NCBI GenBank assembly: GCA_913041175.1
Contig: CAJWGW010000001.1
Coordinates: 1-49,914, forward strand
Source of the DNA: an uncultured bacterium
Lineage (GTDB): Bacteria; Patescibacteriota; Minisyncoccia; Phycocordibacterales; UBA2163
Direction: 5' to 3'
Length of the DNA stretch: 49,914 nt
Below the pieces are notes generated by a model. It searched no databases, was not told the DNA's origin, and saw only the letters and a program-made list of their open reading frames with translations. Both the position numbers and the translations under genes were made by a program. Positions 1,629-18,376 of this stretch are shown here, in pieces. Position 1 is the stretch's first letter; each line of letters begins with the position of its first letter.

Positions 1629-3557
1629 TTAATTAAAATCAATTATTTCTTCTCCTAAATTTTCAAGTTCAGCTTCTTCAAGAAGTTCTTCATTAATATC
1701 CATGATAAATTCTGATGGCATATTTACACTTTGTGAACCAAAGATTGTTCTTACTGATGCATAAGAGAGAAATACTTTTTTCTTTGCACGAGTGAGTGCA
1801 ACATAAAACAATCTTCGCTCTTCTTCATCATCTTTTTTCTCATCAGAAAGTCCACTATGTGGAAATAGTCCATCTTCAAGTCCTGCTATGAATACATATT
1901 CAAATTCCAAACCTTTTGATGCGTGCACTGTCATAAGTCGCACCGCGTTTTTCTCTTCTTTGAGTTCATCTTGCTCTGATGCAAGTGCGGCGTCCTCTAA
2001 AAGTTTTCCAACACCTTCATTTGGTTCAAGTACATCATACCTTGATGCAAGCGTTACAAGCTCTTTTATGTTTTCAAGTCGCTCCTGTTCTTCTTCAGCT
2101 CCATTTTTAAGAGTATCTTCAATTCCTGTGTTTTTAAGTATGAATTTAATTGTCTCGCTTGGTTTTAAACTCAAGGCAATATCTGAAATCTGCTTTAGTA
2201 GAGCTCTGAAATCCGCAACTTTCGCTCTTGCGGAAGTACTTAATTCACCCTCTCTTCCCTCTACAATCTTCATAAATGTTACCTTTCCTATACCCCTTGC
2301 AGGTACATTTATGATTCTTTTCGTAGCGGTTATACTTTCAGGATTAAGGGCTACCTGAAGATATGCAAGAATGTCTTTCACTTCTTTTCTCTCAAAAAAA
2401 CGGACGCCAAGTACTTGATAAGGCACATCAAACGAGAGAAAAACTTCCTCTAAAATCCTTGACTGAAAGTTTGCACGATAAAGCACTGCTATCTCTTTGG
2501 GCTCTACGCCAGATTCAATAAGTTCTTTTGACTTAAGTGTGATGAACTGCGCTTCATGATTCTCATTGAGCGCGCAGAAGAGAGAAAGTTTTTCTCCGTC
2601 TTCATTTTTGGTAAATAGATTTTTCTCTTTTCGCTTTTTATTTTTCTTTATTACAGAATTTGATGCCTCAAGAATATTTTTTGTGGAACGATAATTCTCT
2701 TCAAGAAGAAGTGTTTTTGTATTTTTGTATTTATTTTCAAAATCTAAAAGATTTTCTATATCTGCACCACGCCAACTGTAAATGTTTTGGTCTACATCAC
2801 CAACAACACAAATATTATTATCATTACCTGTAAGTAAGTTCACAAGTTTGCATTGAACTTTGTTCGTATCTTGATATTCGTCTATATGAATGTACTTCCA
2901 AATGTTTTTATATCTCTCTAAAACATTTTCATTTGTCTCTAAAAGAATTACCGTTTTTAAAAGCAAGTCATCAAAGTCGTACGTATTTTCTCTTTTTAAA
3001 ATTCTCTCATACTCTCTCCATACTTGTGCGACAATTCTTGGGAAAAATGAGTTACCTGCACTTTCTTCATATTTATTTAGTGTAATTGTATTTCCTTTCT
3101 GTTTTGAGATTACACTTAATATTTTCCTCGGCTCAAACTGCTTCGGGTCAAGGTCTGCCTTTTTAAGCGCATCTTTGATTGCAGATAGAGAGTCATTTCT
3201 ATCAAAGATTTTAAAATGCCGTGTAATACCCGCTAGTTGCGCATTTTCTTTCAAAATATGGACGCCAAGTGCGTGAAATGTGGCAACATATGGACGACGT
3301 TGCTCTGAAACTGGTAGGTTTATCTCTTTGTCTTTACTAATTAAGTCCCTGACACGCTCTTTCATTTCTTTTGCGGCTTTGTTTGTGAAAGTAACCGCAA
3401 GTATGTTCTGTGGTGCAACCCCTGTTTTTATAAGATTAAGTATCCTGTGTGTGATTGTTTTGGTTTTTCCAGCGCCTGCTCCTGCAATAATCAAAAGAGG
3501 GCCGTTTTTGTGTAAAACCGCTTGTTTCTGCTCTGAATTAAGTCCTTTTAAGTGCAT
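1629..3557 (-). CDS. pcrA: ATP-dependent DNA helicase, UvrD/PcrA family
   Basis: Full SF1 motif set: Walker A AGAGAGKTKT, DEYQDTN, VGDVDQNIYSWRGA, EENYRST, VHASKGLEF, VALTRAKK. Confidence 0.92.
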   Translation of the reverse strand: MHLKGLNSEQKQAVLHKNGPLLIIAGAGAGKTKTITHRILNLIKTGVAPQNILAVTFTNKAAKEMKERVRDLISKDKEINLPVSEQRRPYVATFHALGVHILKENAQLAGITRHFKIFDRNDSLSAIKDALKKADLDPKQFEPRKILSVISKQKGNTITLNKYEESAGNSFFPRIVAQVWREYERILKRENTYDFDDLLLKTVILLETNENVLERYKNIWKYIHIDEYQDTNKVQCKLVNLLTGNDNNICVVGDVDQNIYSWRGADIENLLDFENKYKNTKTLLLEENYRSTKNILEASNSVIKKNKKRKEKNLFTKNEDGEKLSLFCALNENHEAQFITLKSKELIESGVEPKEIAVLYRANFQSRILEEVFLSFDVPYQVLGVRFFERKEVKDILAYLQVALNPESITATKRIINVPARGIGKVTFMKIVEGREGELSTSARAKVADFRALLKQISDIALSLKPSETIKFILKNTGIEDTLKNGAEEEQERLENIKELVTLASRYDVLEPNEGVGKLLEDAALASEQDELKEEKNAVRLMTVHASKGLEFEYVFIAGLEDGLFPHSGLSDEKKDDEEERRLFYVALTRAKKKVFLSYASVRTIFGSQSVNMPSEFIMDINEELLEEAELENLGEEIIDFN

Positions 3558-3641: not shown

Positions 3642-3669
3642 TTGACTTTCAATTTCAGGCGAGTATAGT
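3642..3669 (+). promoter_or_regulatory. candidate sigma70-type promoter for the LysM-M23 gene
   Basis: TTGACT (3642-3647), 16-nt spacer, TATAGT (3664-3669). This would give a leader of about 190 nt before the ATG at 3866. Confidence 0.4.
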
Positions 3670-3865
3670 GAGAGAATACTGATTGGTAGCAATTTTCTTT
3701 GTGGCTCAACAAAGCCATATATTCCGTAAAGTACAGCTTGGTCGCAATAAAACAACATATATCACACCTATAAACCAAGACCTTGACCCTAGCCATAAAA
3801 CCGCTAAAAATCAGGCTAAAATAACAAATTCTTGTACTCTTTTTACAGTAAAAGTGCTATTTATT

Positions 3866-4855
3866 ATGGCCTTACTAATTGCTGTATCTACTCCAAACTC
3901 CGCTAATGCTGGAGTATTTTCTTTTATATCAGACCTGTTTAAATCATTGAAAGTTGAATTCTCACAAACTGCGAGTGTTTATAATTCTCAAACAATACCT
4001 GTCTTGCGTGCAGCACTAAACATTGACCCAAATCCTTCAAAAGGTGGTGGAGACATAATTATAGTTGATGACGAAGCACTTCTTTCTGAGATCGGTCCAT
4101 CAGGAACAATTGCTGAGATTGAAGAACGGCCTGCATCATCTGACCAAATAAGTGTTTATGTTGTGCGTGAAAGAGATTCACTTTCACAAATTGCAAAAAT
4201 GTTTAGTGTTTCAACGAATACTATTATTTGGGCAAATGATATTAAAAGAGGGTCATTCATAACTCCTGGACAAACACTTATCATCTTACCTATTACCGGA
4301 GTGCGACACACTGTGGTCAAAGGTGAGACAGTAAAAAGTATTACCAAAAAATATGATGGCAACTACGAAGAGATACTTCAGTATAATGACCTTACTTTGG
4401 AATCCACAATTGCCGTGGGAGATATTATTGTCGTTCCAGATGGAGAAATCGCGGCGCCAAAGTATACTGGTACAAGTATAATTGTAAAAGGAGTAGGAGG
4501 TCCTACATATAGCGGATATTATATTCTACCTCTGACTGCAGGCCGTCGCTCACAAGGTCTTCATGGATATAATGCGGTTGATTACGCAGCGCCTGCGGGA
4601 ACTCCTATTGTTGCATCTGCGGCAGGAGATGTAATTATAAGCAGAAGTTCTGGATGGAATGGTGGCTATGGAAAATATATTGTAATAAAGCATAACAATG
4701 GCACTCAGACCCTCTATGCACATAACTCAAGCAACATAGTGTACTCTGGTCAGTATGTAGTGCAGGGGCAGGTTATCGGTTATGTCGGCTCAACAGGACG
4801 CTCAACAGGACCTCATATGCATTTTGAAATCCGCGGAGCCAAAAATCCTTTCTAA
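3866..4855 (+). CDS. secreted LysM-repeat M23 family metallopeptidase
   Basis: Signal-like N-terminus (MALLIAVSTPNSANA). Two LysM-like repeats (DSLSQIAKMFSVSTNTIIWAN; GETVKSITKKYDGNYEEILQYN). M23 motifs HGYNAVDYAAPAGTPI and STGPHMHFEIR. The start is uncertain: GTG 3854 and TTG 3683 are also in frame. Confidence 0.85.
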   Translation: MALLIAVSTPNSANAGVFSFISDLFKSLKVEFSQTASVYNSQTIPVLRAALNIDPNPSKGGGDIIIVDDEALLSEIGPSGTIAEIEERPASSDQISVYVVRERDSLSQIAKMFSVSTNTIIWANDIKRGSFITPGQTLIILPITGVRHTVVKGETVKSITKKYDGNYEEILQYNDLTLESTIAVGDIIVVPDGEIAAPKYTGTSIIVKGVGGPTYSGYYILPLTAGRRSQGLHGYNAVDYAAPAGTPIVASAAGDVIISRSSGWNGGYGKYIVIKHNNGTQTLYAHNSSNIVYSGQYVVQGQVIGYVGSTGRSTGPHMHFEIRGAKNPF

Positions 4856-6775: not shown

Positions 6776-6946
6776 TGACTATAAGTATAGACTAATTTTC
6801 TTTTTTATACCAAAGCCAATTAACTCTTGAGTATAAATGGATTTCAAAATTTTGAGCGAAACGAAGTCAAAAATTATGAGGTGTATCTAGAGATACGTCA
6901 AGAAGTTTTTGATGAGTTGCAGCCGAAATTTTGGAAAACATACTCA

Positions 6947-7321
6947 TTAGTTACTTGGTTTTGGTTTGACGTCAGCACATGTACGCGCTGCCGGATTTGC
7001 TTCAAGTCGTGCGAGAGGAATCTGTTCTCCTGTGTCTTCACAGGTTCCGTATTTTCCTTCATCAATTTTCTTTAACGCACGTTTTATATTGTTGTAACGA
7101 ATTTCGAGTTCTTTAACGAGTGCTGTGTTTTTCTCAAATGCTTCAATCCTGTCTGCAACTTCGTTTTTATCCGTTTCAAGCGTGTCCATTTTAGCGGGAA
7201 TCGGTTCCCAATCATTAGGGTTTGACGGGTTAATCCTTGCAATTTTTTGAAGCTCTTCAGTCAAGATATTAAGCTCGCTTTCAAGTTTTTCTTTAAAATG
7301 TTGTGTGTCTATTTTTTCCAT
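6947..7321 (-). CDS. DksA/TraR family protein with a degenerate zinc finger
   Basis: Coiled-coil N-terminus followed by GKYGTCEDTGEQIPLARLEANPAARTC, matching the DksA/TraR C-terminal signature with only two Cys retained. Confidence 0.7.
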   Translation of the reverse strand: MEKIDTQHFKEKLESELNILTEELQKIARINPSNPNDWEPIPAKMDTLETDKNEVADRIEAFEKNTALVKELEIRYNNIKRALKKIDEGKYGTCEDTGEQIPLARLEANPAARTCADVKPKPSN

Positions 7322-7352
7322 AACCTTATATTAGCAGAAAATTAGGAACATC

Positions 7353-8582
7353 TCAACGTAGAGTTCTTGATGAGGTCATGCGTGTAAACACTTCGCTGAA
7401 AGTATTTTCGTTTGTAGTTATGACAATCGTGTTTTTATCTATGAATGAATACATAAGGACTATTTCTCCAGAATTATCTTTCAAAATTCTCGCATCTTTA
7501 TTTTTTATAACAAAATCACTAAATGTTGGAACTATAATAGATGGAGTATTTGTCTCAGAATCATTACCAGAAACTACATCAAACTCCGCAGGACCAAAGA
7601 GCGGAGCAAGGTCTTCTTTTATATCTCTCTCCCAAGAGAGCATCCCTGCAAAAGTATTTTCATAAAAACTATTTTTTAAAATCAAAAACGGCCGGTTTCC
7701 ATCAAAATGATAAACACCAAACATAAAAAGTGGCTCGAGGGAGCGTAAAAATGATGTCGGTAACTGCGCATTTATAGCATTTAAGAAATCGCTCGCGCCA
7801 ACAAGTTCTCTTGTCTCTATCCCCTCTTCGTCAACAAAAGACTGTGTGATAAATACATTCTTGGTCCTACCTATTGAAAGACGCGAGTGGTCTTTGAGGG
7901 TTGTAAGTCCGTTTAAAATCTGTCTTCTTGATAAATCTGTGATTTCAAACTCCTCTTCTTCGTCTGAGAATATTACTGATGGTATTGATGAATCTGGTTT
8001 AACAGTTTCAGTACCACTTTTTCCATAAAAATAAAATACTGAACCGGCTCCAAGTACAAAGAGAGTTGCGCTTAAAATAATAATACCAATTTTTTTGAGA
8101 CGCTGTTTCTTTGATACTTCATCTTCAATACTATCAAGAGGTTCTCCATTTTTAACACGACGTTCATTTTCAGCTGTTGCAATACTGACAAGCGACTCTT
8201 TTTTCTTTCCCACTACTTGAGCAAGGTCGTCTTTGTATGTGCGTATTGTCCTAAGAGGTACTTCTTCTTTCTCATTTTGACTCTCTTCTTTATTCGGCGA
8301 AGCAGGTGCGTCCTTAGGGGGCCAATCTTTAAGCTGTGTTGTATGCCCCAAGTCAACTTTCGGTTTGCCTTGAACTTTGTTTTTAGGTTCAGGTGTGGGT
8401 GTGGGTGTGATTTCTGGGGTAGGAGTTGATTTTGGAATAGGCTCTGGTTCTGGAGTAGACACTGGAGCTGGAGTAAGTGGTGGAGGAGTATCACCTTGCA
8501 TCAGTCTATCTTTTGCTGAAACGTTTTGCTGTGGTTTAGGAACTATATTATCTTGTGGTTTTTGTAAATTTTCTTCTGCCAT
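7353..8582 (-). CDS. hypothetical single-pass membrane protein with a Pro/Thr-rich N-terminal region
   Basis: 409-aa ORF. TPEPEPIPKSTPTPEITPTPTPEP low-complexity tract, one TM segment (IGIIILSATLFVLGAGSVFYFY) and a C-terminal globular part of unknown family. Confidence 0.6.
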   Translation of the reverse strand: MAEENLQKPQDNIVPKPQQNVSAKDRLMQGDTPPPLTPAPVSTPEPEPIPKSTPTPEITPTPTPEPKNKVQGKPKVDLGHTTQLKDWPPKDAPASPNKEESQNEKEEVPLRTIRTYKDDLAQVVGKKKESLVSIATAENERRVKNGEPLDSIEDEVSKKQRLKKIGIIILSATLFVLGAGSVFYFYGKSGTETVKPDSSIPSVIFSDEEEEFEITDLSRRQILNGLTTLKDHSRLSIGRTKNVFITQSFVDEEGIETRELVGASDFLNAINAQLPTSFLRSLEPLFMFGVYHFDGNRPFLILKNSFYENTFAGMLSWERDIKEDLAPLFGPAEFDVVSGNDSETNTPSIIVPTFSDFVIKNKDARILKDNSGEIVLMYSFIDKNTIVITTNENTFSEVFTRMTSSRTLR

Positions 8583-9554: not shown

Positions 9555-10481
9555 ATGTCGCAAAATATCGAGAAGTTAAAAAGAGAGTTCTTAGAATACC
9601 TTGAAATCGAGAAAGGGAGGAGTTTAAAAACTGTTGAGAATTACGACAGATACCTCTCTCGCTTCATTGACTCCACTGGTGTAAAAAAACCTTCCGGCAT
9701 CACCGACGAAGTAGTCCGCAAGTTTCGTCTGTGGCTCAACCGCCAAGAAAGCGGTGTAGCAACAGATGGTGTACAAAACACTCTCAAAAAGAAAACTCAA
9801 AATTATTATTTGATAGCGCTCCGCGCATTCTTGAAGTTCTTACGTAAGCGTGAGATTGACTCCCTCTCTCCCGAGCGTATAGAACTTGCAAAAGTTGGAG
9901 AACGTGGGCTTGACCTTATCTCCTCTGGCGACCTTGAACGACTACTCTTGGCGCCAGATGGGACTGATGTGAAAAGCTTACGCGACAAAGCAATCCTTGA
10001 GCTACTTTTCTCCACTGGTCTTCGTGTATCAGAGCTTTGTTCACTCAACAACGACCTTGATATCTCAAGAGACGAGTTTTCTGTCCGTGGAAAAGGAGAG
10101 AAAATCCGAGTCGTGTTCCTCTCCCAAGGTGCGCGGGAAGCATTGAGGAATTATTTAGACAAAAGACAAGATATGGACGAGGCGATGTTCGTGCAGTTCG
10201 GCAAAAACGCATCTCGAGCAGACTCTCTTCGTCTTACCTCTCGTTCTATTGAGAGAATTGTAAAATTCTACGCAATCAAAGCTGGAATTTCTAAAAAAGT
10301 TACCCCACACGTTGTTCGTCACAGTTTTGCGACAGACCTACTCCAAAACGGCGCGGACTTGCGCTCTGTACAAGCACTTCTCGGGCACGCAAACATCGCC
10401 ACAACGCAAATCTACACACACGTCACAGACAAACACCTCCGCGAAATTCATAAAACATTTCATAATAAAAAAAGAAAATGA
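9555..10481 (+). CDS. xerC: tyrosine recombinase, XerC/XerD family
   Basis: N-terminal SAM-like domain. Catalytic-domain motifs GLRVSELCSL and HVVRHSFATDLLQNGADLRSVQALLGHANIATTQIYTHV. XerC versus XerD cannot be decided. Confidence 0.88.
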   Translation: MSQNIEKLKREFLEYLEIEKGRSLKTVENYDRYLSRFIDSTGVKKPSGITDEVVRKFRLWLNRQESGVATDGVQNTLKKKTQNYYLIALRAFLKFLRKREIDSLSPERIELAKVGERGLDLISSGDLERLLLAPDGTDVKSLRDKAILELLFSTGLRVSELCSLNNDLDISRDEFSVRGKGEKIRVVFLSQGAREALRNYLDKRQDMDEAMFVQFGKNASRADSLRLTSRSIERIVKFYAIKAGISKKVTPHVVRHSFATDLLQNGADLRSVQALLGHANIATTQIYTHVTDKHLREIHKTFHNKKRK

Positions 10482-11245: not shown

Positions 11246-11552
11246 AGGACACCTCTTTAGTTATCCACATGAGTGTCCTTTACATGTCCTTTAGAGGAGT
11301 TATACTAGGAAGTGGACCCTCAGTTCCTTCAACAATTTGGTAGCTTGTTGGATTTTATGATGTGGCTGTTTGTATTTTTATTTGCAACTTTTTTTAACTA
11401 TTTTTGTAAAAGAGATATTTAATACACCCGCAATGTATATAGGAATCAATGGGCTCATTTTTTACGGCTCTTCTCGTCCCCCTCGGTCCCCCTAAAATCG
11501 TCATTGCGATCTTTTTCTCCACTCTAACAATCGCCATGGCGATTTTTTTATT

Positions 11553-13028
11553 CTATTTTACGTAATGTTTCCCTCTTACTTTTTCAATTTCTTTGCCTTC
11601 CGTCTCATTTTTCTTTAATTTCCCCTTTTCTCCGAGTTTTTTAAGTTCATTTTCGCTCAATTTTATAAATTCTTTAGCTTTTTCTTCCAAATACTTCGCC
11701 GTATTTAATTTAGGGTCATCTAAAACCTCTTCCAAAAGAGCATGCAATATAAAACCTATTTTAGGCCCAGGTGTTTCACGAGTAACATCCATAATCTTTT
11801 TACCATCAATCTTGAGCATCGTTACAGATATAGGAGACCTCAAAGCCTCCTCAACCATTGATTTGTATTTGCGTAAGCGATATGGGTGTGCTTTTGGCCT
11901 TCCTGTTCCAATCCTATCACTAACACGTAGATTCATAAGGTCCCAAATGTTCTCTTCCCCCACATTCCTCACCATCCTACGTACTGCAGAGAGTGTTATC
12001 AAGTCAGTATCAGAGAAAAACAAGTGCCAACGAACTAGTTTTGTTATTTTATCTATTTGTTTGTTTGGAAACTTCAAGTTGGTCAAGATTTTACGAGTCA
12101 TTCTACCCCCAACTACATCATGCCCGTGAAACGTCCAGTCTTTCTTTTCGGGAGACCACTTGGCTGTCGCTGGTTTGCCAATATCGTGAAGCAAAGCCGC
12201 TAGTCGTATCTCAAGAGACCACTTATTTTTAGCTGAATGCTGGATTGAACGTAAAAGATGCTCCCAAACCGTATAAGAATGGGCTTGATTCTGTTTCACG
12301 TCGAACCCTTCTTCAAGTTCTGGTATAATAAACTGTAAAACCCCCAATTCATGGGCTAATTCAAGGCCTTCCATAGGTCTATCTGACATAATAATCCTTA
12401 TAAACTCGTCTCTAATTCGCTCTTTTGCTATTTTCTCAAGCATTTTAGCGTCGTTTTTAATAGCTTTTTTGGTTTTTTCCTCTATTTTGAAGTCTAATTC
12501 CGCTGAAATCCTTATAGCACGTAGTACTCTCAAGGCATCTTCACTAAATCTCACATCTGGGTCCCCAACTGCACGTATAATCCCCTTTTCTATATCTTCT
12601 TGTCCTTTATAAGTATCAACAATATGTCCTTTAGAGATACTATAAGCAATAGCATTAATTGAAAAATCCCTCCTGTGTAAATCATGCTCCAAGGAATCGC
12701 TAAACTCCACAGAATCCGGCCTTCTAGCGTCTGAATATTCTGATTCAAGCCTGAAAGGCGTAACTTCAACAACTTTAAGTGTTTCGTCCTGTGTATCCTC
12801 ATTTACAACACCTACTGTTCCATAATCATTATTATAAAATGTGTTCTCAAACAGCTTTTCTATCTCCTCTGGTTTTGCATTTGTCGTTACATCCCAGTCC
12901 TTAGGTACTTTATTTATTATTAGATCTCTTACACAACCGCCGACAATATACGCCTCAAAACCAGCGTTTTCTAGCGCTTCTGTTACTTGTGAAACCTCTT
13001 TTGGGATGTTGAACTTAGACTCTTTCAT
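11553..13028 (-). CDS. cca: CCA-adding enzyme / poly(A) polymerase family nucleotidyltransferase with HD domain
   Basis: GGCVRDLIINKVPKDWDVTT head domain, RRDFSINA, and HD-domain LHDIGKP...HGHDVVG. Confidence 0.85.
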   Translation of the reverse strand: MKESKFNIPKEVSQVTEALENAGFEAYIVGGCVRDLIINKVPKDWDVTTNAKPEEIEKLFENTFYNNDYGTVGVVNEDTQDETLKVVEVTPFRLESEYSDARRPDSVEFSDSLEHDLHRRDFSINAIAYSISKGHIVDTYKGQEDIEKGIIRAVGDPDVRFSEDALRVLRAIRISAELDFKIEEKTKKAIKNDAKMLEKIAKERIRDEFIRIIMSDRPMEGLELAHELGVLQFIIPELEEGFDVKQNQAHSYTVWEHLLRSIQHSAKNKWSLEIRLAALLHDIGKPATAKWSPEKKDWTFHGHDVVGGRMTRKILTNLKFPNKQIDKITKLVRWHLFFSDTDLITLSAVRRMVRNVGEENIWDLMNLRVSDRIGTGRPKAHPYRLRKYKSMVEEALRSPISVTMLKIDGKKIMDVTRETPGPKIGFILHALLEEVLDDPKLNTAKYLEEKAKEFIKLSENELKKLGEKGKLKKNETEGKEIEKVRGKHYVK

Positions 13029-13209: not shown

Positions 13210-13280
13210 GCGGGTATAGTTTAGTGGTAGAACACGTCCTTGCCAAGGATGAAACGAGAGTTCGATTCTCTCTATCCGCA
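13210..13280 (+). tRNA. tRNA-Gly(GCC)
   Basis: 71-nt cloverleaf. Acceptor GCGGGTA/TATCCGC, anticodon arm CGTCC-TTGCCAA-GGATG, T-arm GAGAG-TTCGATT-CTCTC. Followed by a hairpin plus T-run at about 13293-13320. Confidence 0.9.
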
Positions 13281-13436
13281 CAAAATACAAAAACACTAGG
13301 TTTCTTCTGGTGTTTTTGTGTTTATGTGTGAAATATTGACGAGAATTGAAAGGCGGAAGCCCGCGTCTGGGAGACGATTAAGGGCTGAGCTGGGGTCGAG
13401 AACACTTATGAGCGTAGTGAATTAGTGATTCGTGAC

Positions 13437-13456
13437 CGATTCTCTCTATCCGCACA
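13437..13456 (+). repeat. orphan copy of the 3' end of tRNA-Gly(GCC), an att-like direct repeat
   Basis: CGATTCTCTCTATCCGCACA is identical to 13263-13282. No 5' part of a tRNA precedes it. Confidence 0.9.
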
Positions 13457-13745: not shown

Positions 13746-14147
13746 ATGACCAAATCTAAAACAGCTAAGCAAAAAGTGGGAGAAATTGGTGAAAATGTAG
13801 CTTGTAGGTTTCTTGTGAAACAGGGATTTGAGATAATTGAGAGAAATTATTGGAAAAAATGGGGTGAAATTGATGTTATAGCCAAAAAAGAGGGTATCTT
13901 GCACTTCATAGAAGTTAAAACTGTTTCTTGTGAAAACTTAGATAGTGTTACTCGTGAAATAGATGCATATAAACCAGAGGACAATGTGCATCCTTGGAAA
14001 TTAAAGCGTTTATCTAGAACTATTCAGACATATTTACTTGAAAAAGAGAACGATGATACAGATTGGCAGTTTGATGTACTTGCGATTTATCTTGATATGG
14101 CAAATAGAAAAGCAAAGGTAAGTTTTTTAGAAGATATAGTTATATAA
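13746..14147 (+). CDS. yraN: YraN family (UPF0102) endonuclease-like protein
   Basis: GEIGENVACRFLVKQGFEIIERNYWKKWGEIDVIAKKEGILHFIEVKT matches the YraN signature. Confidence 0.85.
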   Translation: MTKSKTAKQKVGEIGENVACRFLVKQGFEIIERNYWKKWGEIDVIAKKEGILHFIEVKTVSCENLDSVTREIDAYKPEDNVHPWKLKRLSRTIQTYLLEKENDDTDWQFDVLAIYLDMANRKAKVSFLEDIVI

Positions 14148-17498: not shown

Positions 17499-17602
17499 AT
17501 AGGTAATAGAAGCTTGGGTTTAACCCGAGTTTTTGTTTGATTATAAGCAAGCTTAAATTAGCTCTTTGGGGCAAATCCAAGCTTTAAATAAAATAAAACA
17601 TC

Positions 17603-17734
17603 ATGGAAGAAAACATGAATGCAAATGTTGAAGGAGAAACTCCTGCAGAAGGAGCTCCTGAAGCTACTCCTGAAGCAGCCCCAGAGGCAGCTCCAGAAGC
17701 TCCAGCAGAAACTATTGACGAAGCATCTGCATAG
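17603..17734 (+). CDS. 43-aa acidic Pro-Glu-Ala repeat peptide (hypothetical)
   Basis: Not in the ORF track because it is shorter than 60 aa. Sequence MEENMNANVEGETPAEGAPEATPEAAPEAAPEAPAETIDEASA. It has a consensus promoter upstream and a strong terminator immediately downstream. No obvious SD. Confidence 0.4.
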   Translation: MEENMNANVEGETPAEGAPEATPEAAPEAAPEAPAETIDEASA

Positions 17735-17739
17735 TTAGT

Positions 17740-17777
17740 AACAAACCCCATCGCTTTGCGATGGGGTTTGTTTTTTG
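17740..17777 (+). terminator. rho-independent terminator
   Basis: AACAAACCCCATCGC-TTT-GCGATGGGGTTTGTT followed by TTTT. Confidence 0.85.
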
Positions 17778-17782
17778 TTCTG

Positions 17783-17838
17783 TGCGGGTAGGGGTAATCG
17801 AAACCCGTGAAAAGGTGTATAAACACCTTTTCACCTGC
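17783..17838 (-). pseudogene. tRNA-like 3' half: anticodon-stem 3' strand, long hairpin, T-arm and acceptor 3' strand
   Basis: Minus strand reads GCAGG-T-GAAAAGGTGT TTAT ACACCTTTTC-A-CGGGT-TTCGATT-ACCCC-TACCCGC-A. TACCCGC is the exact complement of the GCGGGTA at 17973-17979. Confidence 0.55.
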
Positions 17839-17859
17839 TTGCCTGCTCGATATGCTTTG

Positions 17860-17930
17860 TGCGGGATGGGAGAATCGAACTCCCAACCTCAGTTTGGAAA
17901 ACTGATATTATACCATTTAACTAATCCCGC
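17860..17930 (-). tRNA. tRNA-Gly(UCC)
   Basis: 71-nt cloverleaf GCGGGAT..TCAGT-TTTCCAA-ACTGA..GGGAG-TTCGATT-CTCCC-ATCCCGC-A. Confidence 0.9.
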
Positions 17931-17942
17931 ATATACAAGCAG

Positions 17943-17979
17943 TGCGAAGGCAGTCATTCTACCACTAAACTATACCCGC
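17943..17979 (-). pseudogene. tRNA-like 5' half: acceptor 5' strand, D-arm, anticodon-stem 5' strand and loop
   Basis: GCGGGTATAGTTTAGTGGTAGAATGACTGCCTTCGCA. The first 23 nt are identical to the tRNA-Gly(GCC) gene at 13210. No T-arm follows; the tRNA-Gly(UCC) gene starts 12 nt later. Confidence 0.55.
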
Positions 17980-18024
17980 ATTAGTTTGCATAGTAACAGA
18001 TTTTCTTTTTTAAAACCACAAAAC

Positions 18025-18060
18025 CACAAAACCCACGCGCCTAGGCGCGTGGGTTTTGTG
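18025..18060. terminator. strong bidirectional terminator hairpin downstream of hup
   Basis: Perfect 17-bp stem CACAAAACCCACGCGCC-TA-GGCGCGTGGGTTTTGTG, preceded by AAAACCAC tandem copies. Confidence 0.8.
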
Positions 18061-18103
18061 TCATTTCTCCCCCGGAGAAATTGACTCCCCATAGAGAAAA
18101 ATA

Positions 18104-18376
18104 TTATTTAACTGCGTCCTTAAGAGCCTTTGCCGCTCGGAACTTAGGAATTCTCATTGCCTGAATCTGAATGCTCTCACCTGTGCGAGGGTTTCTGCCC
18201 TGCCTAGCTGCGCGCATTTTTGTTGAAAAAATTCCAAGTCCTGCGATTGACACTTCATCTCCACCCTTAAGTCCACCAATTATTGAGTCAACAACAAGGT
18301 CAACCGCTCTTTCTGCTTGGGCTTTTGTACCGCCAAGCATTTCATGAACTTTATCTGCAATAGATGCTTTATTCAT
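18104..18376 (-). CDS. hup: DNA-binding protein HU
   Basis: MNKASIADKV...GLGIFSTKMRAARQGRNPRTGESIQIQAMRIPKFRAAKALKDAV, a canonical HU/IHF fold signature. Confidence 0.95.
   Translation of the reverse strand: MNKASIADKVHEMLGGTKAQAERAVDLVVDSIIGGLKGGDEVSIAGLGIFSTKMRAARQGRNPRTGESIQIQAMRIPKFRAAKALKDAVK

Follow-up and report, generated by a model that had tools for sequence, protein, structure and literature searches.

In a marine ultra-small bacterium of the Paceibacteria (Patescibacteria) the resident tRNA-Gly(UCC) gene is cut exactly between anticodon nucleotides 35 and 36 by a 104-bp insert, which carries between complementary arms a second, intact tRNA-Gly(UCC) that is about 32% different from the resident one. 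Comparison with related genomes and with metagenomic loci indicated that the same arrangement recurs in other Patescibacteria and in about 20 Omnitrophota loci, and that it looks like an undescribed way of replacing tRNA genes. The window analysed was a stretch of 49,914 nucleotides (contig CAJWGW010000001.1 of assembly GCA_913041175.1), and the loci used for comparison, from relatives and from metagenomes, are referred to by L numbers.

Anatomy of the nested locus

The observation made in the initial annotation, i.e., a complete tRNA-Gly(UCC) lying on the minus strand between the two halves of a second tRNA-like gene (17979-17783), was confirmed, and the sequence, coordinates and pairings were as it described. 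The first 23 nt of the outer 5' half were identical to the tRNA-Gly(GCC) at 13210, as it had noted. Its description required correction at the junctions, since the 5' half ends after CTTC (17946) and not after CTTCGCA, the GCA belonging to the insert rather than to the anticodon loop, and the 3' half starts at CAAGCAGG (17841). The anticodon, which had been considered unassignable, can therefore be assigned: it is UCC, broken between C35 and C36 by a 104-nt insert (17945-17842) with no target duplication or loss. The features of the locus are compiled in Table 1.

Table 1. Features of the nested tRNA-Gly(UCC) locus in window coordinates.
Position	Strand	Feature	Supporting observations
18025..18060	-	Terminator hairpin of the upstream HU gene, setting the upstream limit of the tRNA unit	16-bp stem followed by a T run; HU ORF at 18104-18376(-)
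17990..17995	-	TACTAT box 10 nt upstream of the outer 5' end; putative -10 element of the single transcription unit (inferred)	Similar box (TACTAT, TATTAT or TAGTAT) at about the same distance before the tRNA-Gly(UCC) in L001, L002, L003, L004, L086, L087 and L094, moving with the tRNA when the segment is inverted; no promoter found here by a sigma-70 consensus scan
17946..17979	-	Outer 5' half: nt 1-35 of the resident (type A) tRNA-Gly(UCC), comprising the acceptor 5' strand, D arm, anticodon-stem 5' strand and loop CTTC	34/34 identical to the intact tRNA-Gly(UCC) of L014 and L086; intact type A gene at the same locus in L003, L004, L086 and L087
17931..17945	-	Left arm and leader of the insert (GCACTGCTTGTATAT)	Pairs with 17842-17852 in the minimum-free-energy fold (G-C, C-G, then CUGCUUG/CGAGCAG, then AUA/UAU), stacking on the inner acceptor stem; no similarity to other loci
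17860..17930	-	Inner, intact tRNA-Gly(UCC) (type B); the presumed functional gene	Rfam tRNA (RF00005) 69.6 bits (gathering score 29), full-length model match; called tRNA-Gly(tcc) by ARAGORN; identical to the sole tRNA-Gly(UCC) at this locus in L001; 68% identical to type A
17842..17859	-	Trailer and right arm of the insert (CAAAGCATATCGAGCAGG)	Complementary to the left arm; CAAA.. start typical of native tRNA-Gly trailers in relatives
17783..17841	-	Outer 3' half: C36 A37 A38, anticodon-stem 3' strand GCAGG, palindrome in place of the variable loop, T arm, acceptor 3' strand TACCCGC and discriminator A	CAAGCAGG matches CAAGCAGT of intact type A genes; T arm and acceptor strand 23/24 identical to L058; A27.G43 and C49.C65 mismatches in the ARAGORN drawing of the spliced form
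17807..17834	-	28-nt perfect palindrome (GTGAAAAGGTGT TTAT ACACCTTTTCAC) replacing about 6 nt (T43 to G49) of the outer variable region; second lesion in the outer gene	Inverted repeat of 12 nt, 100% complementary, 4-nt loop; absent from intact type A genes, which have AAAC or AGAC there; no other copy in the window or in the loci
17740..17772		Terminator hairpin directly after the outer 3' end, shared with the convergent 43-aa ORF (17603-17734, +)	15-bp stem called on the + strand; conserved after the tRNA in L001, L003, L004 and L087

The identity of the outer halves to tRNA-Gly(UCC) genes of relatives, functional in L014 and L086, showed that their tRNA-like character is not due to chance. 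The whole 203-nt stretch folded at -79.4 kcal/mol (z = -6.8, with 0 of 200 shuffles as stable), and the predicted fold contained the outer acceptor stem, a long helix holding the inner tRNA, a 12-bp hairpin and the outer T arm.

An assembly chimera or strain mixture joining two tRNA-Gly alleles was considered, because nested near-repeats can break or mis-join metagenome assemblies and several contigs end at such loci (L095, L045). The 197-nt element and its flanks (404-411 nt) were, however, base-for-base identical in 11 further independent assemblies from JGI, NCBI, ENA and Tara, made by different groups and assemblers from different samples, so that twelve assemblies of the species carry the identical nest, and the inner and outer copies are too dissimilar to provide a long repeat to mis-join. 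We therefore regard an artefact as extremely unlikely. Since background diversity among these assemblies was only about 9 SNPs in 4.8 kb, the absence of SNPs in the 197 nt is uninformative with regard to covariation within the lineage.

Detection of the outer gene and search for splicing signals

The outer gene as it stands in the genome was not reported by ARAGORN in standard mode, in intron mode up to 300 nt, or at relaxed thresholds, where the only hits were spurious antisense calls. An Rfam search of 17500-18300 at E <= 10 returned the inner tRNA as the only significant hit and no second non-overlapping tRNA match, the remaining hits (PyrR, NrrF, leaders) being terminator hairpins below threshold. 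All known tRNA-Gly have a class I variable loop; after in silico removal of 17945-17842, which joins ...GACTGCCTTC to CAAGCAGG..., ARAGORN called a 93-nt tRNA-Gly(tcc) at its default threshold, with a 26-nt extra arm and the two mismatches given in Table 1, while with the palindrome also removed nothing was called.

No group I core (RF00028) was detected in 17500-18300 at E <= 10, as opposed to 104.7 bits for a positive control, a genuine self-splicing group I intron found in tRNA-Tyr(GUA) of the Omnitrophota locus L119. The 5' exon of the window ends in C and not U, and the insert is shorter than the approximately 200 nt or more of such introns; only its terminal G fits. A bulge-helix-bulge (BHB) motif was likewise absent from the minimum-free-energy fold, in which the 5' junction lies between an unpaired UUC and the first pair of a continuous 13-bp helix and the 3' junction lies inside that helix, one pair in, with no 3-nt bulges separated by 4 bp. 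Pfam scans of 44 ORFs of at least 110 aa in the window revealed no splicing endonuclease (EndA) or RtcB domain, which is weak evidence because only 50 kb was examined. The arrangement is also not that of a split or permuted tRNA gene, as the halves are collinear, on the same strand, 104 nt apart, and lie between one terminator and the next with no promoter-like box between them.

The same locus in related genomes

Relatives were ordered by the identity of their RNase Y to that of the window. At this locus L094 (90.6%) carries type B alone in inverted orientation, L086 (88.3%) type A alone in inverted orientation, L001 (87.3%) type B alone with flanks that align to the flanks of the window's outer gene, and L087 (86.5%) type A alone, whereas L002 carries B and L003 and L004 carry A. 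None of 80 species representatives has this nest. In an attempt to find closer relatives among RNase Y cluster members, L094 was found to lack the nest, the contigs of L095 and L195 ended before the locus, and L194 belonged to the same species. No empty/filled polymorphism within the species was found.

The promoter-plus-tRNA segment flips orientation between two palindromic terminators in close relatives, and types A and B alternate at least three times on the RNase Y tree. These observations would be compatible with a local rearrangement without any mobile cassette, in which both types were resident at a recombination-prone locus and the nest arose by illegitimate recombination, template switching at the palindromic anticodon stem, or inversion and duplication. 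In favor of this possibility, the arms partly repeat the outer anticodon stem (ACTGC and GCAGG each occur twice), and tandem and serial partial duplications are common at such loci (L111, L130). No relative, however, shows A and B side by side as intact neighbors, and the precision and recurrence of the break, the completeness of the inner tRNA and the complementary arms that bound it, described below, also argue against it. We consider this alternative unlikely, although more probable than splicing of the outer gene.

Recurrence of the architecture

We define a tRNA-in-tRNA nest by four features: a host tRNA gene broken between nt 35 and 36 with no loss or gain, a complete isoacceptor tRNA inside, complementary arms bounding the insert, and a single orientation within one unit. 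The window has all four. They were also seen in L062 for tRNA-Gly (direct repeats of the halves 97% identical, complementary arms, break between TTTTC and CAAAC) and for tRNA-Pro(CGG) (break between CTCG and GGT), in the Omnitrophota loci, and, except for the arms, which were not detectable there, in L088, where the roles are reversed with a decayed B-like outer copy and an intact A inner copy. The fold z-score of L088 was only -0.74, and its apparent compensatory acceptor pairs (ACAGGAT/AGCCTGT) could be due to chance and were not used as evidence for selection. The break falls at exactly 35/36 in at least five independent nests, involving different tRNAs (Gly and Pro), different sequences and two phyla; the metagenome pattern could, however, only detect breaks at or after nt 35, and L121 is a nest broken in the variable loop. 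The metagenome hits L096, L100, L102-104, L109, L110, L113, L118, L120, L123, L128 and L131 were false positives of the pattern.

In 14 Omnitrophota nests the two helices were 84% paired and 12 of 22 pairs showed changes on both sides, with a covariation score of 0.332 against 0.130 in shuffles (0 of 500 reached it) and 0.05-0.12 in slid controls, which indicates that the arms are an intrinsic feature. In these helices G.T cells outnumbered A.C cells 13 to 4 on the tRNA-sense strand, which hints at a constraint at the RNA level. The insert termini of the window (GCAC..CAGG) differ from the TCCC(G/A).. ..(C)GGGA termini of the Omnitrophota and L062 nests, and the second hairpin that these have before the 3' exon is absent from the junction in the window, where the only extra hairpin lies 7 nt further on in the variable region. 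Common ancestry of the mechanism is hence inferred from architecture only.

The outer copies appeared dispensable, being degenerate in L062 and L088, lacking the 3' half in L105, L119 and L126, serially truncated in L130 and L106, and in some cases carrying extra hairpin insertions in the D and T loops, while every locus keeps exactly one intact copy. Only 4 of the 9 in silico spliced outer copies tested were called as tRNA at default stringency.

With regard to the origin of the insert, no second copy was found in the 50-kb window, in 80 related genomes or in IMG/VR, and no associated enzyme was found in the searches performed; the nearest tyrosine recombinase ORF (9555-10481) is 7.5 kb away and looks like a Xer-type gene. 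A phage origin of the cargo was examined, but the type B D-arm motif, although common in IMG/VR, occurred mostly in tRNA-Gln of phage tRNA arrays, and no viral contig carried the window's junction or the Omnitrophota junction. Tyrosine-recombinase, IS200/IS605, IS91 and integron models could not be supported, because there is no shared core between target and insert, no target-site duplication is present, the hairpins start at the very ends of the insert, and the flanking tetranucleotides differ (CTTC, TTTC, CTCG).

Proposed interpretation

The interpretation offered in the initial annotation was supported in part. Of its two readings, a tRNA gene destroyed by insertion is essentially right but needs extending, in that the insertion is intron-like in its precision, carries a complete isoacceptor tRNA between complementary arms and is one instance of a recurrent architecture in two phyla, whereas a tRNA-containing intron or cis-split tRNA is not supported, though also not refuted. 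With fair confidence we propose that the resident type A gene was inactivated by a self-rescuing tRNA cassette, as an intermediate in tRNA gene replacement. In this view the cassette consists of the complete type B tRNA with a few nucleotides of its own leader and trailer, bounded by the complementary arms, and the insertion is tolerated because the cargo tRNA replaces the function of the gene it destroys. The unit would be read from the resident promoter to the resident terminator, with RNase P and 3' processing releasing the inner tRNA; the TACTAT-type box seen 10-11 nt before normal genes is absent before the inner tRNA. The outer halves would now act only as a structured leader and trailer and would have begun to decay, as judged by the palindrome and the two broken stem pairs. 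Later deletions between the short direct repeats shared by the inner and outer copies would remove the outer halves and give the simple replaced state seen in sister genomes. Derivatives predicted by this scheme exist, namely an intact tRNA plus a 3' fragment (window 13436-13454, and L130 Pro) and a 5' fragment plus an intact tRNA (L129, L105 and L119).

The analysis itself demonstrates the anatomy, the homology of the halves, the exact break point, the recurrence of the architecture and the decay series, whereas the arrival of the insert as a mobile or transferable cassette by a structure-guided step at 35/36, the transcription and processing scheme and the deletion pathway are our inferences. 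The outer 5' half shows no decay at all, so that either the event is recent or the outer gene is maintained, and both expansions, the arms and the palindrome, are near-perfect helices, which is unusual for junk.

These latter points leave room for the outer gene still being expressed as a tRNA, with RNase P/Z or another nuclease removing the inner tRNA and its arms and the outer halves being ligated or remaining paired, so that one transcript would yield two tRNA-Gly(UCC) species, the outer one with a giant extra arm. The precision of the insertion, whose removal restores a perfect CUUCCAA loop, the ARAGORN call of the spliced form, the helices abutting both junctions, the covariation and G.U over A.C bias of the Omnitrophota arms and the group I intron at the same 35/36 position in L119 are consistent with this possibility. 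Apart from the missing splicing signals, it is weakened by the fact that RNase P/Z cuts would leave 15- and 18-nt tails on the halves and not the exact junction, that the product would have the extra arm and two broken stem pairs and be redundant with the inner tRNA, which already supplies the UCC decoder, that the nearest relatives have a single un-nested gene of one type or the other, and that outer copies elsewhere are truncated or degenerate next to an intact copy. We consider it very unlikely. If true, it would represent a bacterial tRNA whose intervening sequence is itself a tRNA and a new kind of protein- or RNase P/Z-dependent tRNA splicing in Bacteria, with the conserved helices in Patescibacteria and Omnitrophota as its recognition elements.

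If the cassette reading is right, it shows how an essential single-copy tRNA gene can be swapped for a foreign allele without ever losing function, which would explain the patchwork of tRNA-Gly alleles and orientations among close relatives. It would also point to an unidentified activity that recognizes a position in the tRNA fold rather than a sequence, and it would imply that half-tRNA relics and nests break assemblies and are invisible to tRNA finders.

Comparison with known systems

To our knowledge, interrupted tRNA genes in Bacteria contain self-splicing group I introns, and tRNA-targeting mobile elements are large, integrase-bearing islands, whereas here a bare tRNA gene with short complementary arms sits within its own isoacceptor in two phyla of ultra-small bacteria. 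Literature searches on nested tRNA, bacterial non-group-I tRNA introns, and CPR or Omnitrophota tRNA introns found no description of this arrangement.

Archaeal tRNA introns at non-canonical positions, transposing introns, and split or tri-split tRNA genes (Thermoproteales, Nanoarchaeum, Caldivirga; PMC10714607, PMC4090602) likewise interrupt a tRNA gene precisely in a loop, occur as similar intervening sequences in several loops or tRNAs, form helices at the junctions, and include tRNA-Gly(UCC) among the tri-split cases. A second functional RNA can sit inside the intervening sequence, as does the C/D-box sRNA inside the archaeal tRNA-Trp intron. The present case differs in being bacterial, in lacking a BHB motif, in its position at 35/36 and not 37/38, in the absence of a splicing endonuclease in the 50 kb read, in the embedded RNA being a complete isoacceptor tRNA that makes the host gene redundant, and in the decay of outer copies in relatives.

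Bacterial group I introns in tRNA anticodon loops (tRNA-Leu(UAA), tRNA-fMet, tRNA-Arg and tRNA-Ile) share the precise, duplication-free interruption, in L119 at the very same position, but the window's insert is 104 nt with no detectable catalytic core, follows a 5' exon ending in C, and contains a tRNA.

Integrase-type genomic islands and prophages reportedly integrate into tRNA genes at the anticodon-loop or T-loop sublocations and carry a copy of the tRNA 3' segment (Williams, 2002, NAR). The target is in both cases a tRNA gene loop flanked by the stem's inverted repeat, the incoming DNA brings tRNA sequence that keeps the function intact, and leftover tRNA fragments remain nearby, as at window 13436-13454. 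The present insert, however, is 104 bp, non-coding and without an integrase gene, carries a whole tRNA rather than the 3' segment, has no direct-repeat core, the only direct repeats being the 81-82% similar homologous parts of the inner and outer genes, and leaves both a 5' and a 3' relic.

Small non-autonomous palindromic elements and cassettes, such as MITEs, REP and PATE elements and integron cassettes with attC hairpins, resemble the insert in their small size, in complementary termini that can fold, in cargo lying between the termini, in site-specific insertion as with integron cassettes, and in the serial arrays seen in Omnitrophota. The insert differs from them in having no target-site duplication, no other copy in the 50-kb window, no attC R/L-box consensus and no identified cognate transposase or integrase, and in that the target is a position in a tRNA fold rather than a sequence.

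Free-standing homing endonuclease genes beside tRNA genes are represented in our dataset by L060, where a GIY-YIG pseudogene lies between a tRNA-Pro fragment and an intact tRNA-Pro. L060 is broken in the T loop and has no 3' relic, and no endonuclease gene lies in or next to the window's insert, but in both cases a broken resident tRNA copy sits next to an intact replacement copy that arrived with foreign DNA (in the window, on the cassette reading), and homing would explain duplication-free insertion and why the cargo and target alleles differ.

Gene order and predicted structure of the nested tRNA locus

The region was first examined on the minus strand for its gene order, tRNA genes and predicted folding (see the table of features below). 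The nested element occupies 197 nt between a strong terminator hairpin following the HU gene and a second terminator hairpin that is shared with a convergent 43-aa ORF, and it is preceded by a conserved TACTAT box. The surrounding window is a housekeeping stretch near dnaA/dnaN of a Patescibacteria (Paceibacteria) genome from marine metagenomes. Using ARAGORN and Rfam, only the inner tRNA-Gly(UCC) was recognized (69.6 bits), and the intron modes of ARAGORN did not call an outer gene. The pairings listed in the initial annotation, which had described a complete tRNA-Gly(UCC) lying between complementary halves of a second tRNA-like gene, are real. The stretch was predicted to fold at -79.4 kcal/mol (z = -6.8) into an outer acceptor stem, a 13-bp helix that stacks on the acceptor stem of the inner tRNA, a perfect 12-bp hairpin, and a 4-bp T stem. 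The initial observation was confirmed, with corrected boundaries.

The convergent 43-aa ORF encodes a conserved acidic Ala/Pro/Glu-rich product (MEENMNANVEGETPAEGAPEATPEAAPEAAPEAPAETIDEASA) without a Pfam match; it was noted in the window and in locus L081, it is present in the relatives, and the only SNPs near the nest lie in it. Elsewhere in the window an ORF of the UPF0102/YraN family of predicted nucleases (Pfam 74.1 bits) was found between a tRNA-Gly(GCC) relic and tRNA-Pro(UGG), and a tyrosine recombinase ORF (Phage_integrase plus an N-terminal SAM-like domain), probably a Xer-type gene, was found 3 kb from the tRNA cluster and 7.5 kb from the nest.

Coordinates of the features identified in the window and in related or metagenomic loci (L numbers denote fetched loci; positions are those of each locus)
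Sequence	Feature	Position	Strand
Window	RNase Y	20028-18499	minus
Window	HU	18376-18104	minus
Window	Terminator hairpin after HU	18060-18025	minus
Window	TACTAT box	17995-17990	minus
Window	197-nt nested element	17979-17783	minus
Window	Inner tRNA-Gly(UCC)	17930-17860	minus
Window	Second terminator hairpin	17772-17740	
Window	43-aa ORF	17603-17734	plus
Window	UPF0102/YraN family ORF	13746-14147	plus
Window	3' fragment of tRNA-Gly(GCC)	13436-13454	plus
Window	tRNA-Gly(GCC)	13210-13281	
Window	Tyrosine recombinase ORF	9555-10481	plus
L081	43-aa ORF	3643-3774	
L004	Inverted tRNA-Gly(UCC) segment	7052-7123	
L086	Inverted tRNA-Gly(UCC) segment	4660-4730	
L094	Inverted tRNA-Gly(UCC) segment	about 75-150 nt after HU	
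L119	Group I intron in tRNA-Tyr(GUA)	3200-3461	minus
L060	Broken tRNA-Pro, GIY-YIG ORF, intact tRNA-Pro(UGG)	6830-7130	minus
L130	Serial stack of tRNA-Gly 5' halves	2840-3325	
L106	Serial stack of tRNA-Gly 5' halves	7180-7600	
L111	Tandem repeat with tRNA-Gly 5' fragments	3314-3534	minus
L121	Nest broken in the variable loop	3950-4290	plus
L114	Hairpins inside putative tRNA-Thr 5' fragment	11394-11556	plus
L027	93-nt 'tRNA-Lys(ttt)'	4020-4112	minus
L045	Contig start, exactly at C36	1	

Identity of the outer halves

To determine the identity of the outer halves, relatives were fetched through RNase Y. The relatives L003 and L087 carry an intact tRNA-Gly(UCC), hereafter type A, at the same place between the HU terminator and the next terminator, and L004 and L086 carry it inverted; its sequence begins GCGGGTATAGTTTAGTGGTAGA.. 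and continues ..GACTGCCTTCCAAGCAGT... The outer 5' half in the window is 34/34 identical to this gene in L014 and L086, up to and including CTTC, while the outer 3' half starts with CAAGCAGG and its T arm and acceptor strand match L058 and L088. The outer gene is therefore a resident tRNA-Gly(UCC) broken exactly between C35 and C36, and the 104-nt insert consists of GCACTGCTTGTATAT, the inner tRNA, and CAAAGCATATCGAGCAGG, with nothing duplicated and nothing lost. The loop CTTCGCA assigned to the 5' half in the initial annotation is made up of the first four loop bases plus three bases of the insert. The inner tRNA, hereafter type B, is only 68% identical to type A.

The outer gene carries further damage, in that a 28-nt perfect palindrome replaces about 6 nt of the variable region, A27:U43 has become A.G, and the first T-stem pair is C.C.

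The D-arm motif of the inner tRNA (GGGATTAGTTAAATGGTATAA) was found in 62 viral contigs of IMG/VR (L132-L193), most of which are tRNA-Gln in phage tRNA arrays and a few of which are tRNA-Gly(UCC), the best being 62/71 identical to type B.

State of the locus in the population and in close relatives

Eleven other assemblies of the same species, from different projects, are identical across the element, which rules out an artefact. With only about 9 SNPs in 4.8 kb of flanks, however, this identity says nothing about constraint. Several other contigs end at or next to the tRNA-Gly locus (L045 starts inside the gene, L074 ends inside the tRNA, and L095 ends at the upstream HU terminator), which fits assembly breaks caused by nested near-repeats.

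On the RNase Y tree the state of the locus changes repeatedly, as listed below.

State of the tRNA-Gly(UCC) locus in the window and its relatives, with RNase Y identity to the window
Locus	RNase Y identity to window	State at the locus
Window		A[B] (B nested in A)
L094	90.6%	B alone, inverted
L086	88.3%	A alone, inverted
L001	87.3%	B alone
L087	86.5%	A alone
L088	84.2%	Decayed B-like gene enclosing an intact A
L002	79.7%	B
L003	79.3%	A
L004	79.5%	A (inverted)

In L001 the B gene sits with flanks that align to the flanks of the window's outer gene, which is what two deletions between the short repeats GCGGG..GCGGG and CCCGCA..CCCGCA would leave. The segment comprising the putative promoter and the tRNA is inverted between the two terminators in L004, L086 and L094 compared with the window, L001, L003 and L087. 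These flanking terminators are similar palindromes (AACAAAACCC..GGGTTTTGTT) that could mediate the flip.

Recurrence of the architecture in Patescibacteria and Omnitrophota

A search for tRNA halves around intact tRNAs in the fetched loci identified two more nests in L062, a Vogelbacteria genome. The first is a tRNA-Gly(UCC) nest broken TTTTC|..|CAAAC, in which the 5' and 3' halves are repeated at 97% identity, the arms are complementary (12 nt at 100%), and the outer D arm carries a 5-nt insertion. The second is a tRNA-Pro(CGG) nest broken CTCG|..|GGT with decayed outer halves. Both inserts start TCCCA, and the Gly insert ends CGGGA. L088 is a fourth case, with spacers of only 3 and 4 nt. In addition, ARAGORN called a 93-nt 'tRNA-Lys(ttt)' in L027, a Paceibacteria relative, which may be another tRNA with an insertion.

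Metagenomes were then scanned using a pattern that required a tRNA-Gly 5' half through YTTC, followed within 32 nt by a new tRNA-Gly 5' end, with the window's own G excluded. The scan returned 36 loci, of which about 20 form one family from Candidatus Omnitrophota. Since the pattern could only find breaks at or after nt 35 and the Omnitrophota loci are related to one another, the independent evidence for a break at 35|36 consists of the window, L062 Gly, L062 Pro, L088, and the Omnitrophota family counted as one case. Other break points were also encountered. L121 is a nest in a GC-richer organism that is broken in the variable loop rather than at 35|36, and its outer T loop carries a twin hairpin with different termini (TCCGCCC..GGGCGGA and CCCGCTCG..CGAGCGGG); L129 is a 5' fragment ending at nt 40; and L111 contains a tandem repeat with a 156-nt period, each unit holding a tRNA-Gly 5' fragment (nt 1 to about 31) plus about 125 nt, that ends in an intact tRNA-Gly(UCC).

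The Omnitrophota nests all lie at a syntenic site after tRNA-Thr and tRNA-Tyr. From 5' to 3' each consists of an outer 5' half ending ..CCTTC, a left arm TCCCGCC(n) followed by an AT-rich spacer, the intact tRNA, a spacer followed by the right arm (n')GGCGGGA, a hairpin B (TCCCG....CGGGA), and an outer 3' half starting CAAGC... On 14 of these loci 84% of the cells of the two helices are paired and 12 of 22 pairs show changes on both sides. The covariation score was 0.332, compared to 0.130 in shuffles (0 of 500 reached it) and 0.05-0.12 with slid partners.

Decay of the outer copies and derivative forms

The outer copies in Omnitrophota are heterogeneous and behave as relics. Many have a non-complementary 3' strand of the anticodon stem (CAAGCACAACAAT), some lack the 3' half altogether (L105, L119, and L126), and some form serial stacks in which two (L106) to three (L130) tRNA-Gly 5' halves precede the one intact gene. 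In L130 the last two of these are a near-identical repeat of 5' half, twin hairpin, CAAGC, and leader, and the first 5' half also has a twin hairpin in its D loop. Many outer copies carry extra cargo-less twin hairpins with the same TCCCG..CGGGA ends in the D loop (AGTT|..|CAGTGG) or the T loop (GTTC|..|GATTC). Such hairpins were seen only in copies that have an intact copy next to them, and every locus keeps exactly one intact gene. Among the nine in silico spliced outer copies tested (excluding two derived control constructs) only four were called tRNA at default stringency. In L114, TCCCG..CGGGA hairpins lie inside what looks like a tRNA-Thr 5' fragment upstream of the intact tRNA-Thr, which suggests that the phenomenon is not limited to Gly and Pro.

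Two derivative forms are expected from deletions between the inner and outer direct repeats, and both exist. An intact tRNA plus a 3' fragment was found after tRNA-Pro(GGG) in L130 and in the window itself, where a duplicated 3' fragment of tRNA-Gly(GCC), GATTCTCTCTATCCGCA, lies 155 nt downstream of that gene. This fragment starts inside the T loop (break TTC|GATTC), the same T-loop position at which hairpin units are inserted in the Omnitrophota outer copies, and similar 18-nt 3' fragments lie near tRNAs in the loci L012, L016, L028, L036, L037, L054, L069, L070, and L071. A 5' fragment plus an intact tRNA was found in L105, L119, and L129.

We also considered whether the outer gene could be a bacterial tRNA with an intron or a split tRNA, and regard this as unlikely. 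The precision of the insertion, the undecayed outer 5' half, the covariation of the arms, and the ARAGORN call of the in silico spliced form speak in favor of it. No group I core was detected in the window's element, whereas a genuine group I intron in tRNA-Tyr(GUA) of the Omnitrophota contig L119, which lies between anticodon nt 35 and 36 (..ACTGT|intron..G|AAATCTG) directly upstream of the tRNA-Gly nest, scored 104.7 bits in Rfam. The 5' exon of the window's outer gene ends in C, no bulge-helix-bulge motif is present, and no splicing-enzyme domain was found in the 44 ORFs scanned. Cuts by RNase P/Z would not produce the exact junction, the product would be a redundant tRNA-Gly with a 26-nt extra arm, and the nearest relatives lack the nest.

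Putative origin and processing of the nest

The sequence comparisons show that a resident tRNA-Gly(UCC) gene is interrupted at 35|36 by a short, arm-bounded DNA carrying a whole, different tRNA-Gly(UCC), that this design is recurrent, that the host genes decay, and that sister lineages end up with a simple replacement. The remainder of the scheme is inferred from these data. In this view the insert arrives as a transferable cassette through a step that recognizes the position in the tRNA or cloverleaf fold rather than a sequence, as the flanking bases differ (CTTC|C, TTTC|C, and CTCG|G), and because the cargo is an isoacceptor the insertion would be neutral and could fix. Transcription would run from the resident TACTAT box to the resident terminator, the inner gene having no box at the usual 10-11 nt spacing, and RNase P and 3' processing would release the inner tRNA. 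The arms may be kept because they insulate the inner cloverleaf from its near-identical shell, which would fit the excess of G.T (13) over A.C (4) on the sense strand in Omnitrophota.

Inner and outer copies usually differ in their acceptor pairs and swap roles between genomes, for example A[B] in the window against B'[A] in L088, and the locus L101 against L098. This could reflect survivorship of diverged repeats, folding orthogonality, or immunity of the cargo to a nuclease that cuts the resident allele. A homing-type route, in which a double-strand break in the resident allele is repaired from a nest-bearing allele, is plausible but unproven. In the locus L060 the first two-thirds of a tRNA-Pro, broken in the T loop and with an odd anticodon arm, are followed by a GIY-YIG ORF with an internal stop (Pfam 53.7 bits) and then by an intact tRNA-Pro(UGG), and the same leader (tttaatat) precedes both tRNA copies.

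The initial annotation, which had weighed a tRNA with an intervening sequence or a cis-split tRNA against a tRNA gene destroyed by insertion or duplication, was partly supported in its interpretation, since the element is an insertion into a tRNA gene, and one of a specific, recurrent, and self-rescuing kind. We hold the reading of a relic plus a cassette with fairly good, but not full, confidence. The window's element alone is a curiosity, whereas the recurrence at 35|36 across Patescibacteria and Omnitrophota, with covarying arms in the latter, would not be expected by a tRNA or mobile-element specialist and is amenable to testing with public data.

Comparison with known systems

Full-text literature searches found no description of a tRNA gene nested in the anticodon loop of another tRNA gene in Bacteria. 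The nearest analogues are archaeal non-canonical and transposing tRNA introns and split tRNAs (PMC10714607, PMC4090602), bacterial group I tRNA introns, integrase islands that target tRNA loops and bring replacement tRNA sequence, and small palindromic or cassette-type elements. The window's element fails the defining tests of the first three, and when compared to small palindromic or cassette-type elements it has complementary arms but no duplication at the insertion site. We therefore place it among disrupted tRNA genes and tRNA-targeting insertions, of which kinds are already known, and from which it differs in that a whole isoacceptor tRNA bounded by short complementary arms lies in the anticodon loop of the gene that it interrupts.
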